Source of the DNA: Candidatus Aenigmatarchaeota archaeon | GTDB lineage: Archaea; Aenigmatarchaeota; Aenigmatarchaeia; QMZP01 | Assembly: GCA_038999435.1 (NCBI GenBank) | Contig: JAVZYR010000004.1 | Coordinates: 1 to 26,515 of the forward strand | Direction: 5' to 3' | DNA length: 26,515 nucleotides | Shown here: piece by piece, positions 1 through 9,220 of the stretch | Layout: each line of letters starts with the position of its first letter | How positions within the stretch are numbered: the stretch's first letter is position 1 | The notes under the pieces: generated by a model | What the model was told of the DNA's origin: nothing | Database searches by the model: none | The model's input: only the letters and a program-made list of their open reading frames with translations | Translations under genes and position numbers: made by a program

Positions 1-2329
1 CAAGCCAAATCTTTTCTGCAATAAAGGGCACGAATGGAGATAAAAGTTTTAGCAGCCTTTCCATGACCTAGAAAAGGCAATAGGCTGCGCTGCTATCTTT
101 TTGTGCAAGCCTTGACCGTATAAGCTTTATATAACATCTTGAGAGGTCTTCAATCACAAACTCAACAAGCCCTCTTGCAGCATGATGGAATCTGAAATCT
201 TCAAGTGCAGATGTTGTGTCAGCGATTATGGTGTTTATCCTTGAAATTATCCATTTGTCCTCAAGTGCAGAAACTTTTGCTTCCTGCCTCTTTGCATAGA
301 GTTTTATGAAATCACAGCAGTTTAGAAGTATGTTGAAAAATCTCTTGAGCTCTTCTGCAGACTTTAGATTGAATTTTTGTGTATTCCATGGCGGCACATC
401 ATAGCAATAGTAAAGCCTTAGCATGTCTGCACCAAGCCTTGCCCATGCATCCTCTGCCCACACAACATTGCCAAGCGATTTTGACATCTTCTCGCCCTTT
501 TCATCAAGTGTCCATCCATTCAAGCACACGGTTTTATATGGACTCTCACCGAATGTTGCAAAAGCACAAAAGAAAAGTGTATAAAACCATCCTCTTATCT
601 GGTCCTGTGATTCGTCAATAAGGTCAACAGGCCACAAGGCCTTGAAAAGCTGTTTGTTTTTGAATGGATAACCAAGCGATGCCCATGGCGCGATCCCAGA
701 ATCGAACCATACATCCATTATGTATGGATATCTGCTCATAACCCCACCACAATCACATTTCAGTTTTATTTTATCCACACTATCCTTATGCAAATCAACA
801 TCATCTGCTAATGGTTTTACAGACATCTTTTTCAACTCAGCCACAGAACCTATTGCCATCCTTCTTTGGCATTTTTGGCATTTCCATATCGGTAATGGAA
901 TGCCCCAATATCTCTGTCTTGTAATTGCCCAGTCCGGCGCATCTGCAAGCGTGTTCAAAAATCTTTCCCGTGCAAATTCAGGCAACCATCTCACATTTTC
1001 TGCCTCTTTCATCATGATATCCTTCAGCGTATCAATCTTCAAAAACCACTGATGCGATTTTCTGTATATCAATGGTGTTTTGCATCTCCAGCACAAAGGA
1101 TAGGAGTGTATTATAAATCCTGCATAAAACAATTTCCCTGTTCTTTCCAGCTCTGCAATGATTTCTTTATCTGCATCCTTAACAAAAATCCCTGCAAATT
1201 TACCTGCCTCGCTTGTCAGCTTCCCCTCTTCATCAACTGGTGAGGGCTCTGGCAGGCCATAATGCTTTCCTGCCCTGTTGTCAACATCACCATGTCCTGG
1301 TGCGATGTGCACAAGCCCTGTTCCTGTCTCCATATCAACAAGATGGCCAAATTCTTCCTCTTCAGCAGCCCCCTTCATTGCAACCTTTGATGCAACCCTT
1401 TTCTTTATGATTGGTATCGAGGCAATGACCTGATGTGCGCTGTCCTCTTTTGTAAGTTCTCTCTGCAGTGGTACATCCAGCACAGGCTCGTATTTCAAAC
1501 CTTCAAGCTCCTTTCCATAAAATTCATCTATAATATTGTAATCCAGCCCTAACTCCTCAAACACAGAAACCCTTTTCTTTGCGACTATCAACTTCTCCCT
1601 TCTTACATCCACAACTGCGTATTTCTCATCAGGCCTTACAGCTATCGCCACATTTGCAGGAAGGGTCCATGGTGTTGTTGTCCATACAAGAAGATGCATA
1701 TCCCTTTCCTTTAATTTGAATTTTATGTATATAGATGGGTCTTTGAGATTTTGATAAGAATCTGAAACTTCATAACCTGCAAGTACTGTTTGACATTTTG
1801 GACACCAATAGCCTGGCTTCTCACCTTCAACAAACAGGCCTTTTTCATAGATGCGCTTTATTGTCCACCATCCAGACTCTATATAATAATTCTTATATGT
1901 CATGTACGGCTCGAGCCAACCTCGCCATGCACCGAGCTTTTTATAAAGTGCCATCCAAAGCGGTCTATTCGTCTCAGCAAGTTTTTTGCATTCAGCAATG
2001 AAACGTGAGATACCTATTCGCTCTATATCTTTTTTTGTGGTTATCCCAAGTTTTTTCTCAACTGCATTTTCTATCGGAAGACCTGAACAGTCAAAGCCTG
2101 GTTGCCACCACACAGAAAAGCCTTGCATTGCCTTGAATTTGCCCCACACATCCTTGAATGTTGTTGTCTTTACATGCCCGACATGTGGGATGTGATTTAC
2201 ATATGGCGGGCCATCAAGGAGATAGAATTTTTTCCCTTTTTTAAATTTCACAATACGCTGTGGTATTTTTTCCTTTTCCCAATAATTCAATATCTCACTC
2301 TCTATCTTTTTTGCATCATAAAATGCCAT
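1..2329 (-). CDS. ileS: Isoleucyl-tRNA synthetase, with an in-frame TAG at 68-70; the frame continues off the window edge
   Basis: Motifs DGPPY..PHVGH (HIGH), WTTTPWTLP, GTGLVHIAPGHG (CP1 editing domain), DWAITRQRYWGIPLP, DQIRGWF and KMSKS. After the TAG the same frame reads VMERLLKLLSPFVPFIAEKIWL, matching the class Ia anticodon-binding motif. Confidence 0.95.
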
Positions 2330-2391
2330 ATTAAAAAGTTTGAGCCTGCGAATTTAAATTTAAAAGACTTATTTAAAATAGGAGGTTGTAA

Positions 2392-2652
2392 ATGGAAAAA
2401 AAGAAGCTTGTAGGAACCATAACACATTACTTTACAAACCTTGGTGTTGCAGTTGTACAGCTTAGCGACACAGTCAAAAAAGGTGATGAGATAAGCATTG
2501 AAGGTGCAACAACAAACATAAGACAAAAGATAGATTCCATGCAAATAAATAAAAAGCCTGTGGAAGAGGCAAAAAAGGGGCAATCAATAGGGCTTAAAGT
2601 ACCAGACAGGGTCAGAGAGAACGACAAAGTATACAAGATTATTGCTGCTTAA
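2392..2652 (+). CDS. Small translation-factor-like beta-barrel protein (EF-Tu domain II / U32 C-terminal-like)
   Basis: VGTITHYF..LGVAVV.L...VKKGDEI.I.G......QKIDSMQI......EAKKGQSIGLKV..RVRENDKVY pattern; GGAGG Shine-Dalgarno upstream. Confidence 0.8.
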   Translation: MEKKKLVGTITHYFTNLGVAVVQLSDTVKKGDEISIEGATTNIRQKIDSMQINKKPVEEAKKGQSIGLKVPDRVRENDKVYKIIAA

Positions 2653-2673
2653 TCTGAGTTTAAAAATTAAAAA

Positions 2674-2774
2674 GCAGATTTAGTTTAGTGCTCAGTCTTT
2701 GAATGCCCGAAGGCATACCGTGGCCCGCATCATATAGATACTGCCACTGAATCTGAGCTGCACCCTAAATCTGC
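2674..2774 (-). ncRNA. Unclassified structured RNA: three-way junction closed by a strict bulge-helix-bulge motif
   Basis: 10-bp outer stem GCAGAUUUAG/CUAAAUCUGC; 4-bp GGUG/CACU helix with 3-nt bulges CAG and AAA; CUCAG/CUGAG stem; GUGGC/GCCAC plus GUAUC/GAUGC arm; AUGCC-UUCG-GGCAU hairpin. G-U pairs and the cUUCGg loop favour the minus strand; a U-rich tract follows. Confidence 0.7.
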
Positions 2775-2783
2775 ATTTTTTAA

Positions 2784-3758
2784 TTATTTTTGGTATTTAA
2801 ATACCTTTTCAGGCCATTCAACATCATCTGTCCTTTCATTAGGTCTTGGATTTGTGGCTATTTTCAGCCCTGATGTATGCGTAATAAAACCTGTAACTGC
2901 AATCATCGCACCATTATCACCAGCATACCTTTTTGGTACCCTCGCAAACCTGCATCCTCTTTCCTTTGCCATTGTTTCGAGCATCTGTGCAAGCCTTTCA
3001 TTTGCAGAAACCCCGCCTGTGAGAAGCAGCTCTGATTTGCCAAGATGCGCAAGTGCACGCTCAGCAACTTCTGTTATCATTGCAAAACATGTCTCTTGCA
3101 AAGAAAAGCACAAATCGTTAAGGCTAATCCCTGCGCGAAACTTTCTTATTGCCTCTGTAACGATACCAGAAAAACTCAGGTCCATACCTTTTACTGTATA
3201 TGGCAAATCTATCCATTTCCCCTCTTTTGCCATTGTCTCTATCTCAGGTCCTGCTGGAAATGTAAGCCCAACAGCCCTTCCAAACTTGTCAAGTGCATTG
3301 CCTATGCCCATGTCCTGTGTTTCACCAAATATGCGATATCTACCATCTACCCATGAAACAATTTGTGTATTTGCACCTGAAACATAAACTGAAACAGGAT
3401 CTTTAAGTCCTGTTAAAAATCTTCCAATTTCTATGTGAGCGACACAATGATTAACACCTATCTTTGGTTTTTTAATTCTTTTCAAAAATTCATACCCTGC
3501 CCTAAGACATGGCGGAAGCCCTGGCCCACGCGAAAATGCAATCAGCTGTACATCAGTCATATCTACACCTGCCTGCAAAAGGGCATCCCTCACAACCTTA
3601 TCAGCAACTGCCCTATGATGTGCTGCTGCCTCTAACGGAACTATACCCCATCCTTTGGCTGGTCTATACACATCTTTAATCTCTGATAGTATTTTTTTCC
3701 CATCAAATACACCAGCACCAAATGTATGGGCAGTTGACTCTATGCCAAGACACAGCAT
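2784..3758 (-). CDS. kae1: tRNA t6A threonylcarbamoyltransferase Kae1/TsaD
   Basis: Motifs LGIESTAHT, FSRGPGLPPCL, VNHCVAHIEIG, VSGANTQ, GETQDMGIGNALDKF and DNGAMIA. Start moved to the ATG at 3758 (MLCLGIES) to avoid overlap with the divergent gene. Confidence 0.95.
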   Translation of the reverse strand: MLCLGIESTAHTFGAGVFDGKKILSEIKDVYRPAKGWGIVPLEAAAHHRAVADKVVRDALLQAGVDMTDVQLIAFSRGPGLPPCLRAGYEFLKRIKKPKIGVNHCVAHIEIGRFLTGLKDPVSVYVSGANTQIVSWVDGRYRIFGETQDMGIGNALDKFGRAVGLTFPAGPEIETMAKEGKWIDLPYTVKGMDLSFSGIVTEAIRKFRAGISLNDLCFSLQETCFAMITEVAERALAHLGKSELLLTGGVSANERLAQMLETMAKERGCRFARVPKRYAGDNGAMIAVTGFITHTSGLKIATNPRPNERTDDVEWPEKVFKYQK

Positions 3759-5122: not shown

Positions 5123-6268
5123 ATAAGAAAGCAAAGTGATTGCCATCAAAAATGCCAATATAACAAATATCCATAAGATTAGGATCCACTCAACCTTTGG
5201 CGTTTCAACCTCAACTTTTAGAGGTGTACAGTTCTGCCATAAAGATGGCATTGTACATGTTGTGTTGCACTGATTTACATCAATACATTCTCTAAATTGT
5301 ATGCCTGGCTCAAGACATGGTCCCCATTCCTCGCATGTCCAATTTTCAACACAAGGCCTTGGGCATGGCGGGCATGGTGCACCTGGTGCTCTGCAAGGTG
5401 GGCATGGCGGGCATGCTGGACAGGGTAGACATGTAAACTTGATGAAATCGTCATAGGCCCATTCAGAGCATGCACCATATACATCACATGTCCGTGCACC
5501 CCAAACATACAGCGCAAAATCTGACAGATTTTGTTCAATCTGTGGTGGGCTTGCAGGTGATTTTATACTTCCATTGAATGTATATTCATCGTATGTTCTG
5601 TCATTGTCAGGGTCACTACCGGATTCCCATCTCAATATCACATACTGCTGGTTTGTATGATTTTGGCCATAGAGCACAGGTTTGCTTGGTGGATTATTAA
5701 AAAGCAAAAAACTATCTGTTGCCCAATCTGAACAGCATAGCTGATTGCATGTTCGTACAGACCATGTATGAGGGCCAAAGCTTAGCTCGATTTGTATTGG
5801 CGGGCTTATCTGGCTCTGATTTCCATCAATGCTAAATATATCGTATGTTGGAAGATTGTTCGGGTCTTGACCAGATGTCCAAAAAAACATTATAGTTCTG
5901 TTGTGGCTGTCAGGCACATCCTGTAAGGTTGGCTTACTTGGTGGTTGGCATAGGGTGACATTGACCTCTGCTGCATAATAATCATCAGCAATCCCTTCTG
6001 CCTGACCATATGCCATGTCCTTTTTTGCCGTTACAAAAACCCTTCCTCTTGCCGGTATGTTTAGGTTTGCAACAACATAGTAGCCATTTTCATCTGTGTG
6101 TGTTGATTGAAAACAACCATCGACACAATTTGCAACCGTTATGTTTACATCTGCCCCGGAAATCGTGTTTCCAAATTGGTCAAATATCCATCCCTCGCAC
6201 GTTCCCATGTAGATGGCACCTACATTTGGTATAAGAAGGAAAAAAGTAGCAAGAATTGCCCATTTCAT
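5102..6268 (-). CDS. Cys-rich membrane-anchored surface protein
   Basis: Signal peptide; carboxypeptidase-regulatory-like domain (G..ISGADV....TDENGYY); two FN3-like repeats (PPSKP.L...W..G.DP......YD...W..RTC.....CS.WA.D.F); CPPCPPC tract; CVENWTCEEWGPC..Q.R.C module; C-terminal TM helix; many N-x-S/T sequons. Confidence 0.8.
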   Translation of the reverse strand: MKWAILATFFLLIPNVGAIYMGTCEGWIFDQFGNTISGADVNITVANCVDGCFQSTHTDENGYYVVANLNIPARGRVFVTAKKDMAYGQAEGIADDYYAAEVNVTLCQPPSKPTLQDVPDSHNRTIMFFWTSGQDPNNLPTYDIFSIDGNQSQISPPIQIELSFGPHTWSVRTCNQLCCSDWATDSFLLFNNPPSKPVLYGQNHTNQQYVILRWESGSDPDNDRTYDEYTFNGSIKSPASPPQIEQNLSDFALYVWGARTCDVYGACSEWAYDDFIKFTCLPCPACPPCPPCRAPGAPCPPCPRPCVENWTCEEWGPCLEPGIQFRECIDVNQCNTTCTMPSLWQNCTPLKVEVETPKVEWILILWIFVILAFLMAITLLSYLIIKQK

Positions 6269-6270
6269 GT

Positions 6271-6915
6271 TTATGATTGGAGATAACTTTTATTATACTT
6301 TAGCATGCCTTCTGTTTGCATAAGGATAAATTGCCCCTCACCTTTGTATATGAGCCAAAATGGCTTTGTTGCCGAATGATTGGAGAATATGTCAAATTCC
6401 TGTCTGCTTGTATTCCATTTCATAAGATATCTCCAATTAATACCATCGAGATATCTGCTAATGTTTGTTGAAAATGTGTAAGGATATGTCGGTGCATTCC
6501 AACCAACAAGCAAGCTTATGTTCATATCCCCAAATTCGTCTCCACTAATCTCAAGCCAACCACTGTCATTTTTGAAATATATAAAGTAACTTTCATTCAG
6601 ATCAAAACTATCGAATGGATTTTGGCTTGTCCTTGGCGAGTATATGTCAAATTCTTGTCTGCTCCTATTCCATCTGAGTACGTATCGATAATCGATATCT
6701 TTTAGAATATGTTCCACTGATAGATTTTGAGGTTGAGCACAGACTGAAAAAAGATTCCATCCTTTGTAAAATTTTATCGAACAGGGCTGAAGGACATTCA
6801 GGCCAACAGTTCCTGAAACATAAGATGTTAATGTAAAACTAAACCACAAAGTAAAAATAGATTGCAGAACACTGAGAAAAACATAGACATAAACAAGGAC
6901 AACAAGTTTTCTCAT
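6271..6915 (-). CDS. N-terminally anchored extracellular protein with two internal repeats
   Basis: N-terminal hydrophobic helix; repeats GWN..YRYVLRWNRSRQEFDIYS..PF and GWN..WRYLMKWNTSRQEFDIFS..PF. Confidence 0.75.
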   Translation of the reverse strand: MRKLVVLVYVYVFLSVLQSIFTLWFSFTLTSYVSGTVGLNVLQPCSIKFYKGWNLFSVCAQPQNLSVEHILKDIDYRYVLRWNRSRQEFDIYSPRTSQNPFDSFDLNESYFIYFKNDSGWLEISGDEFGDMNISLLVGWNAPTYPYTFSTNISRYLDGINWRYLMKWNTSRQEFDIFSNHSATKPFWLIYKGEGQFILMQTEGMLKYNKSYLQS

Positions 6916-8122: not shown

Positions 8123-9220
8123 ATGGGGGATATTCGCATAGCCATTGCAGGTATTGGTAATTGCTGTTCAAGCTTGATTCAGGGCATATTTTATTATCAA
8201 AATGTTGACAATAATGATAAAACTATACCAGGGCTAATGCATAATATTTTAGGTGGTTATAGAATATCAGATATTAAACCTGTTGCAGCATTTGACATAG
8301 ACAAAAGAAAGATTGGAAAAGATTTATCAGAGGCTATATTTTCAAAACCGAATTGCACAAAAATATTTTTCAAGGACATCCCAAATCTTGGGGTTGAAGT
8401 CCACATGGGTCCTGTGATGGATGGTTTTTCACCTCACATGGCAAACTATCCTGAGGATAGAACATTTGTTATATCTGAAAAAAGGCCAGTTGATGTGGTT
8501 GATGTGTTGAAAGAGACAAAAACAGAAATTCTGATAAATTACCTTCCTGTTGGCTCAGAGAAAGCAACAAAATATTATGCTTCTGCTGCACTTGAAGCAG
8601 GCTGCGCATTTATAAATTGCATACCTGTTTTTATCGCATCTGATGATGCCTGGTCAAAAAGGTTTGAAGAAGCAAGGCTGCCTTTGATTGGAGATGATAT
8701 AAAATCTCAGATTGGTGCAACAATCCTACATAGAACCCTTGTGCGACTTTTTTCAGAAAGAGGTATAAAGATAGACAGAACCTATCAACTTAATACGGGT
8801 GGAAATACAGACTTTCTGAATATGCTCGAGCGCTCGCGACTGAAATCAAAAAAAATTAGTAAAACACAATCCGTACAATCTCAGCTTCCTGTGCCTCTCG
8901 AGCCTGAAAATATACATATAGGTCCATCTGATTACGTGCCGTGGCAAAATGATAATAAAGTTTGCTTTATTCGTATAGAAGGTAGAAAATTTGGCAATGT
9001 GCCGGTTGAACTCGAATTAAGGCTTTCTGTTGAGGATAGCCCAAATTCAGCAGGTATCGTTATCGATGCAATAAGATGTGCAAAGATTGCGCTTGATAGA
9101 GGTATAGGCGGACCGCTTATAGCTGCAAGTGCATATTTCATGAAATCTCCTCCCAAACAGTACCCAGACTGGCTTGCAAGACAGATGCTTGAGGATTTTA
9201 TAGGAAATGAAAAGGCTTGA
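8123..9220 (+). CDS. ino1: myo-inositol-1-phosphate synthase
   Basis: [66 protein letters not shown]. Confidence 0.96.

Follow-up and report, generated by a model that had tools for sequence, protein, structure and literature searches.

Known substrates of the archaeal splicing endonuclease comprise tRNA introns, the processing stems of rRNA, very few mRNA introns and the permuted signal recognition particle (SRP) RNA of Thermoproteus. The endonuclease, EndA, cuts the motif known as bulge-helix-bulge (BHB) after the second nucleotide of each bulge, and RtcB can circularise the excised piece. Here we analyse a 101-nt locus on the minus strand of a stretch of DNA from Candidatus Aenigmatarchaeota archaeon (assembly GCA_038999435.1, contig JAVZYR010000004.1, positions 1-26,515, forward strand); this whole stretch of 26,515 nucleotides is called the window below. 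We put at roughly 45% the probability that the locus is an independent gene encoding a small, structured RNA without coding function, carried by a genus of DPANN-type, Aenigmatarchaeota-like hot-spring archaea, whose transcript is excised at a BHB into a ring.

The processing stems of archaeal pre-16S and pre-23S rRNA share the architecture of the candidate: a leader-trailer helix of about 10 bp carries a strict 3-4-3 BHB and encloses a whole stable RNA. The 16S stem of the same organism shares two further details with it, an AAA 3′ bulge and the adjoining G.U pair. In contrast to the pre-rRNA stems, the candidate encloses 74 nt that are not rRNA, and virtually no leader or trailer extends past its helix. 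Circles of pre-rRNA are intermediates, whereas the ring proposed here could be either an intermediate or an end product. In Thermoproteus, the permuted SRP RNA is described as a functional circular RNA, its ring being formed at a BHB that leader and trailer make together and that EndA cuts (PMC4731332). It resembles the candidate in being a stable RNA that is neither tRNA nor rRNA, in its leader-trailer BHB and in belonging to a lineage rich in tRNA introns (PMC4731332), but the candidate is far smaller, has no SRP features and shows no sign of being a permuted member of a known family.

In Haloferax, a systematic study combining circular-RNA sequencing with EndA knock-down reports BHB-flanked circles only from tRNA introns, 16S and 23S rRNA and one mRNA 5′ untranslated region (UTR) (PMC7714728). 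That UTR belongs to Haloferax volcanii HVO_1309; the BHB intron in it is reported to yield a 46-nt circle, detected by circular-RNA sequencing, and to be cut in vitro by EndA, and like the candidate it lies outside tRNA and rRNA (PMC7714728). It sits in an mRNA leader, by that account with the spliced mRNA as its presumed product, whereas the flanks of the candidate would ligate to a bare 27-nt hairpin, so that its product, if it has one, has to be the excised piece. The stable circular introns of tRNA-Trp, treated together with other archaeal circular non-coding RNAs, are likewise presented as small structured circles that the splicing machinery produces and that remain stable in thermophiles (PMC3326292). 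The tRNA-Trp introns have a tRNA host gene and, in some species according to that source, act as C/D guides (PMC3326292), while the candidate has no host gene and does not behave as a C/D RNA in the tests set out below. The circles named in surveys of Sulfolobus and Halobacterium are tRNA introns, rRNA intermediates, C/D RNAs, RNase P RNA, 7S RNA and omega RNAs, and those described there as having no assigned function are ones without a BHB (PMC3326292, PMC12558985). A full-text literature search gave no description of a stand-alone small gene with a BHB-excised ring as its product.

The genome to which the window belongs amounts to 549 kb in 30 contigs and is 86% complete; the window is its contig C4. 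The candidate RNA lies on the minus strand between two convergent genes, an 86-aa open reading frame (ORF) on the plus strand (stop at 2652) and kae1/TsaD on the minus strand (stop at 2784). We number it from window position 2774 (RNA position 1) to 2674; its first nucleotide is 10 nt past the kae1 stop, on the same strand. No open frame runs across it in any of the six frames. The bulges CAG and AAA are each placed 3′ of their own strand of the central helix, on opposite strands and with exactly 4 bp between them, which makes a strict hBHBh′ motif. Helices extend on both sides of it, with 10 Watson-Crick pairs outside and 5 inside. The first-pass annotation of this DNA had quoted the same letters for the minus strand of 2774-2674, and its BHB anatomy (a 10-bp helix, a 4-bp helix, two 3-nt bulges and a 5-bp helix) is correct letter for letter. 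The arithmetic of its cuts at 2759/2758 and 2685/2684, of the 74-nt length and of the junction strings is right as well, and its placement of the RNA between convergent genes, outside any tRNA, rRNA or ORF, is supported.

Several signals point to a gene in its own right. The minus strand folds at −46.6 kcal/mol, with a z-score of −6.63, and 0 of 200 shuffles fold as well. The plus strand reaches a z-score of −5.79 at −37.9 kcal/mol; it is 8.7 kcal/mol worse because the G.U pairs and the cUUCGg loop exist on the minus strand only. Upstream, the TATA-like octamer TTTAAATA occurs 125 times in the genome (both strands counted), which gives a probability of about 0.001 for its start to fall in a given 10-nt window; a loose W-rich pattern in its place gives 0.009. 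Comparable A/T boxes, at a like spacing of about −33 to −20, precede the tRNA and 5S genes of the genome. On the other side of the RNA, a run of at least five T starting within 3 nt has a chance probability of about 0.014. The T5 that follows the helix is retained in the sister species, while in one strain a single nucleotide is deleted at 2669. The genome shows no excess of hairpin terminators, with 7 found and 8.9 expected (12 kb). DNA of the locus is carried by four public hot-spring metagenome runs, all of DNA and all from a single study; across 2300-3200 they show 19 variant sites and one indel, with none in 2674-2774, a weak depletion (P about 0.09).

Fold energy, TATA-like box, T5 run, the lack of a terminator habit and, weakly, the variant-free stretch together argue for a gene of its own. 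We are highly confident that the locus is a real, orphan and formerly undescribed small-RNA gene. The free-standing structured RNA proposed by the first-pass annotation is supported, and folding of both strands favours the minus strand that it had chosen.

The machinery needed for excision is encoded in the same genome. EndA is recognised by two matches to PF01974, scoring 62 and 18 bits, that share a single open frame situated at the edge of its contig (C7:3-455, plus strand); two tRNA_int_endo matches in one frame suggest a two-unit enzyme of the alpha′2- or epsilon2-like type. RtcB is found as a match to PF01139 of 568 bits (C15:747-2054). Natural substrates are present too. Cutting after the second bulge nucleotide restores the 7-nt anticodon loop CUUUGGA of tRNA-Gln(UUG) and the T-loop UUCAAAU of tRNA-Ala(UGC), so the cut rule on which the first-pass annotation relied holds on introns of this very genome. 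Its comparison with the anticodon intron of tRNA-Gln is also sound: this tRNA gene is real and its BHB is a strict 3-4-3 one.

From these elements we propose the following course of events. Transcription would begin from the RNA's own TATA box, with its start on the first nucleotide of the 10-bp terminal helix or beside it, and would end at the oligo-T run directly after that helix. The terminal helix would present a canonical BHB, built like that of the organism's own pre-16S processing stem, and EndA would cut both bulges. RtcB would then join the ends, giving a 74-nt circular RNA with a three-way junction, together with a 27-nt hairpin of the ligated flanks. The ring would be the product, an RNA resistant to heat and exonucleases, and the conserved junction and arm segment its likely working surface. 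That the RNA is transcribed, cut and ligated, and that the ring has a function, are predictions. The processing into a 74-nt ring has, in our estimate, slightly less than an even chance of being correct. We propose still more tentatively that this is a dedicated circular-RNA gene, a minimal hairpin matured by EndA and RtcB like a miniature pre-rRNA and serving solely to make the 74-nt three-way-junction ring.

Table 1. Features of the candidate RNA and of the BHB substrates compared with it. Positions are those of the window unless a contig is named; identities are those of the partial copy in the sister species.
Feature	Position	Strand	RNA position	Identity in sister species	Description
TATA-like box TTTAAATA	2794..2801	-			20-27 nt before the first helix nucleotide; within the last kae1 codons; purine-rich stretch just upstream
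Outer helix, 5′ strand	2765..2774	-	1-10		Fully Watson-Crick paired (10 bp) with 2674-2683
Central 4-bp helix, 5′ strand GGUG	2761..2764	-	11-14		Pairs with CACU at 2687-2690, one G.U
5′ bulge CAG	2758..2760	-	15-17		Predicted cut 2759/2758
Inner helix, 5′ strand CUCAG	2753..2757	-	18-22		5 bp with RNA 80-84
Hairpin B	2720..2747	-	28-55		28 nt, bipartite; GUGGC/GCCAC stem, 1x2 internal loop
Hairpin B, upper part		-			GUAUC/GAUGC stem (one U.G), loop UAUAU; contains AUGAUGC (RNA 42-48)
Hairpin C, AUGCC-UUCG-GGCAU	2703..2716	-	59-72		c(UUCG)g tetraloop
Junction strand UCAAAGA	2696..2702	-	73-79	7/7	
Inner helix, 3′ strand CUGAG	2691..2695	-	80-84	4/5	CCGAG in the sister species
Central helix, 3′ strand CACU	2687..2690	-	85-88	3/4	CAUU in the sister species, still pairable with GGUG
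3′ bulge AAA	2684..2686	-	89-91	3/3	Predicted cut 2685/2684; same AAA in the sister copy and in the organism's own 16S stem
Outer helix, 3′ strand	2674..2683	-	92-101	4/10	
T5 run, likely archaeal terminator	2669..2673	-			Directly after the helix; second T5 at 2662-2666
Predicted excised and circularised piece, 74 nt	2685..2758	-	17-90		Predicted from the motif; inner helix, three-way junction, hairpins B and C
Pre-16S processing stem	C8, about 1030-1060 and 2780-2810	-			BHB: 11-bp outer helix, GUGA/UCAU, bulges AAU and AAA, 6-bp inner helix
tRNA-Gln(UUG)	~11970-11750	-			Strict BHB at the anticodon loop: stem GCGGG, CUUU/AAAG, bulges GGU and AGA
tRNA-Ala(UGC)	C8:927-1010	-			Just downstream of 16S; T-loop intron, BHB GUGGG UUCA AAA ... 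UGAA CAU CCCAC

A partial orthologue of the RNA lies at the very start of a contig of the sole other species of the genus (G001:C82:1-30). It was found by cmsearch with a single-sequence model, matches model positions 72-101 and scores 13 bits, with E 1.6 in 191 kb of loci fetched around the neighbour genes. The copy is syntenic: the orthologue of the 86-aa gene follows at 47-292 on the other strand. Kae1 of this species is 72% identical, and the contig that carries its gene (G001:C101) ends at residue 237. The sister assembly is thus broken both inside the RNA gene and inside kae1, with about 430 nt unassembled at the locus, and a search of it for the predicted 5′ strand gave the copy itself and one chance match only. 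Compared with the window RNA, the copy has no indels, keeps all spacings and is followed by T5. In its 3′ 30 nt, the only part available, conservation is distributed as would be expected of an RNA under constraint whose outer stem is free to co-vary.

Outside the genus, the searches returned nothing above chance. Matches to the core pattern with 2-3 mismatches are as frequent in 371 class genomes as those of a reversed control, and the core 21-mer has 0 matches in viral contigs. The pattern of the two junction strands hits 35 loci in genome contigs, 80 in metagenome contigs and 4 in viral contigs, all by chance; among the 115 genome and metagenome loci the best local alignment scores 25, which is the pattern itself, and R1, the single-sequence covariance model built from the locus, gives 0 matches in 100 of the 115. 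The first-pass annotation had suggested a search of related genomes for covarying homologues downstream of kae1; it gave none outside the genus, and three relatives have no room for the RNA. In 29 relatives, the 730 nt that follow kae1 contain no BHB RNA, and two gaps of 218 and 233 nt (G018, G023) look unstructured or coding. The convergent pair of kae1 and the 86-aa gene is itself widespread in the order. In three relatives the stops lie 1, −14 and 29 nt apart; with stops this close, the RNA gene was either inserted in this genus alone or lost in the other lineages. The 86-aa ORF (window 2392-2652, plus strand) has a weak likeness to EF-Tu domain 2 and to the C-terminal barrel of U32, and the protein is kept in 30 of 40 relatives, at 51-74% identity among the loci listed; its gene is often convergent with kae1, and the two stops overlap or abut in the three relatives just named.

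None of the known RNA families accounts for the locus. A search of the window against Rfam, at the gathering score and at E ≤ 5, assigned the candidate RNA to no family, in agreement with the first-pass annotation. The miRNA-like match to its long hairpin is a chance one (21.8 bits against a cut-off of 66). A tRNA is rejected: ARAGORN finds 0 genes in the window, none of the 27 Rfam tRNA matches in the genome lies on contig C4, and the loop of hairpin C has 4 nt. A permuted tRNA is rejected as well, the circularly permuted order having been judged by eye. SRP RNA, including its permuted circular form, is discarded with no match to RF01857 at E ≤ 1 in the whole assembly and no Rfam match at E ≤ 5 in the window. 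The organism's own 5S rRNA lies elsewhere (C11:9914-10027, 66.7 bits), and RNase P RNA gave no model match. A miniature inverted-repeat transposable element (MITE) is dismissed, the sequence being single-copy in the genome and its terminal helix only 4/10 identical in the syntenic orthologue. A hammerhead-type junction, a K-turn and a 13-codon ORF inside the RNA were rejected by inspection only, and inspection likewise spoke against 5S rRNA, SRP RNA, RNase P RNA, an H/ACA RNA and a MITE.

Several observations weigh against excision at the BHB. The minimum-energy fold is not the BHB: it adopts the alternative 6-bp GCUCAG/CUGAGC register, and the competing pairing already named by the first-pass annotation is thus indeed the one that the energy model prefers. 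The BHB conformer lies above this minimum by 3.0 kcal/mol at 37 °C and by 1.5 kcal/mol at 75 °C, and it accounts for 0.5-2.3% of the ensemble, 0.5% being its share at 37 °C and about 2% that at 60-75 °C. In the same test, the BHB of the organism's own 16S stem takes 17% at 37 °C, where the candidate has 0.5%, and 4% at 70 °C, where the candidate has 2.7%; the candidate is therefore clearly the weaker of the two at the lower temperature and no more than comparable at the higher one. In a scan of the 549-kb genome (strand distance up to 400), strict BHB motifs with at least 18 Watson-Crick pairs number 5, compared with 2, 1, 2 and 0 in four Markov shuffles; one of such quality is thus expected about once per genome by chance. 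In the sister copy, the C-to-U change in the central helix keeps the pairing with G and fits both registers, and the 5′ 71 nt are unassembled, so that no base pair can be scored for covariation. A blastn search with the locus in 40 relatives gave short chance matches only, the best of them, in the sister species, being the start of a protein gene. R1 matched in 0 of 60 relatives at E ≤ 1 and in 0 of 150 class genomes at E ≤ 10, in a genome-wide search that passes few candidates on its first look and that gave 0 in the sister genome, missing the truncated copy found by cmsearch; the 20-nt core pattern matches only the two genus members among 371 class genomes. It is a real possibility, although one on which we would not bet, that the locus encodes a genuine stand-alone small RNA that stays linear and that EndA hardly processes in any useful measure, its irregular 7x7 stem region being an internal loop or a protein-binding site that fits the BHB by accident. 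The energy model, which prefers a 2x2 / 2-bp / 2x2 arrangement or an open 6x6 loop, the chance rate of BHB-like geometries of equal pair count and the sister-species changes, compatible with both registers, all leave room for it, and the conserved loop-region sequence (AAA, CAYU) could equally mark a protein-binding site. Yet only 2.1% of random draws of a 7x7 region between two helices fall into the BHB register, and 0.5% of shuffles of the actual 7-mers. The architecture, moreover, mirrors the 16S stem down to the G.U pair beside the AAA bulge, and archaeal EndA is described as recognising the BHB shape irrespective of its context (PMC4731332, PMC7714728). The modelled shares at 70 °C are close, so the energy model cannot separate the candidate from the 16S stem at the likely growth temperature. 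Four of the five strongest BHB motifs lie inside open frames of 144-2901 aa, the candidate alone being outside any frame.

Other explanations question the independence of the locus or its use to the cell. The RNA begins just past the kae1 stop, on the same strand, and might be a 3′-end element of both convergent genes: a structured 3′ UTR, a terminator-insulator acting in both directions, or a BHB intron within the 3′ UTR of kae1. An A-run and a T-run border the helix on either strand, folding of the plus strand is good as well (z −5.79), and a UTR-borne BHB intron is described in Haloferax, in the HVO_1309 5′ UTR (PMC7714728). We nevertheless find this unlikely: a well-placed TATA-like box lies upstream, hairpin terminators are not enriched (7 against 8.9 expected), the G.U pairs favour one strand, and a GC-rich three-way junction with a UUCG loop far exceeds what termination needs. 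The gaps of 1, −14 and 29 nt in the three relatives show that the gene pair there needs no such element. The same gaps make the locus an insertion peculiar to the genus between genes that are adjacent in relatives, and in a genome rich in large modular tRNA introns it could be a selfish or relic BHB intron-like element that landed there and is transcribed with no function in the cell. This is rather improbable for a single-copy sequence with no paralogue or shared module elsewhere in the genome; it has promoter-like and terminator signals of its own, and it is kept at the same place, with a conserved core and no indels, in a species whose Kae1 is 72% identical. Least probable is an atypical guide RNA for modification, of the C/D-box or H/ACA type. 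The first-pass annotation had remarked on a weak resemblance to C and D boxes, and the two strings are indeed there, AUGAUGC matching 6 of the 7 letters of the RUGAUGA consensus and CUGA occupying RNA 80-83. Circular and permuted C/D RNAs are moreover described in Nanoarchaeum (PMC3491384). The resemblance itself does not hold up: the nucleotides flanking the boxes are unpaired and form no terminal stem, C′ and D′ boxes are missing, and the boxes are only 31 nt apart. Complementarity to 16S rRNA and its flanks amounts to three overlapping 8-mers, with 2.7 expected, and to 5S rRNA to 7 nt, 23S rRNA being absent from the assembly. The 12 nt before CUGA have no RNA-gene target at up to 2 mismatches; a 13/14 match at window 12741 was discarded as AT-rich DNA and not an RNA gene. 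Nor does an ACA follow the lower stem in either species, UUUUU standing there; no K-turn signature is seen on inspection, and Rfam gives no match.

The other strong BHB matches of the genome scan, one on C19, two on C3 and one at C4:8072, were set aside as lying within long open frames, and the match at C1:66954 as a zinc-ribbon coding region. The same strict scan of 400 kb of a family member (G002, 51% GC) found nothing comparable; its best out-of-frame BHB has 15 Watson-Crick pairs and is without a T-run.

Introns disturb the detection of many tRNA genes in this genome. ARAGORN reports 10 genes and Rfam 27 partial matches, a low yield that is explained by the many tRNA genes carrying large introns at odd places. 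The gene of tRNA-Gln(UUG), interrupted in the D-loop region, in the anticodon loop, where the scan gives a span of 127 nt, and in the T-arm region, is missed by both ARAGORN and the Rfam tRNA model. Its introns carry the hairpin modules GCUCUUUAGAGC and GAGCGGUGGAGCAGAAACCACC, and the same modules occur on contigs C1 and C16. The models for archaeal SRP RNA, RNase P RNA and 23S rRNA have no match in the 86%-complete assembly; these genes may lie in assembly gaps or be disrupted like the tRNA genes. Loss of RNase P is known in Nanoarchaeum. Elsewhere in the genome, contig C17 has, on the minus strand, A/T-rich palindromes about 40 nt long that come in pairs of nearly the same sequence, UUUUCUUUUAGAAAAAGAAAA followed by CGCUUGCGAAAAGAAAACUACA with a spacing of about 60 nt, at two places 2.8 kb apart (6236-6316 and 9007-9087). 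They could be mini repeat arrays or the ends of an element.

If the ring is not made, the locus still represents a new orphan small-RNA family of a poorly known lineage. If it is made, the conserved junction and arm segment would be the best candidate for the active surface of the ring, as judged from the sister-species copy. A free-standing gene with an excised ring as its product would be a new use of the splicing machinery, and nature would thereby offer a minimal scaffold for circular RNA that is stable at high temperature.

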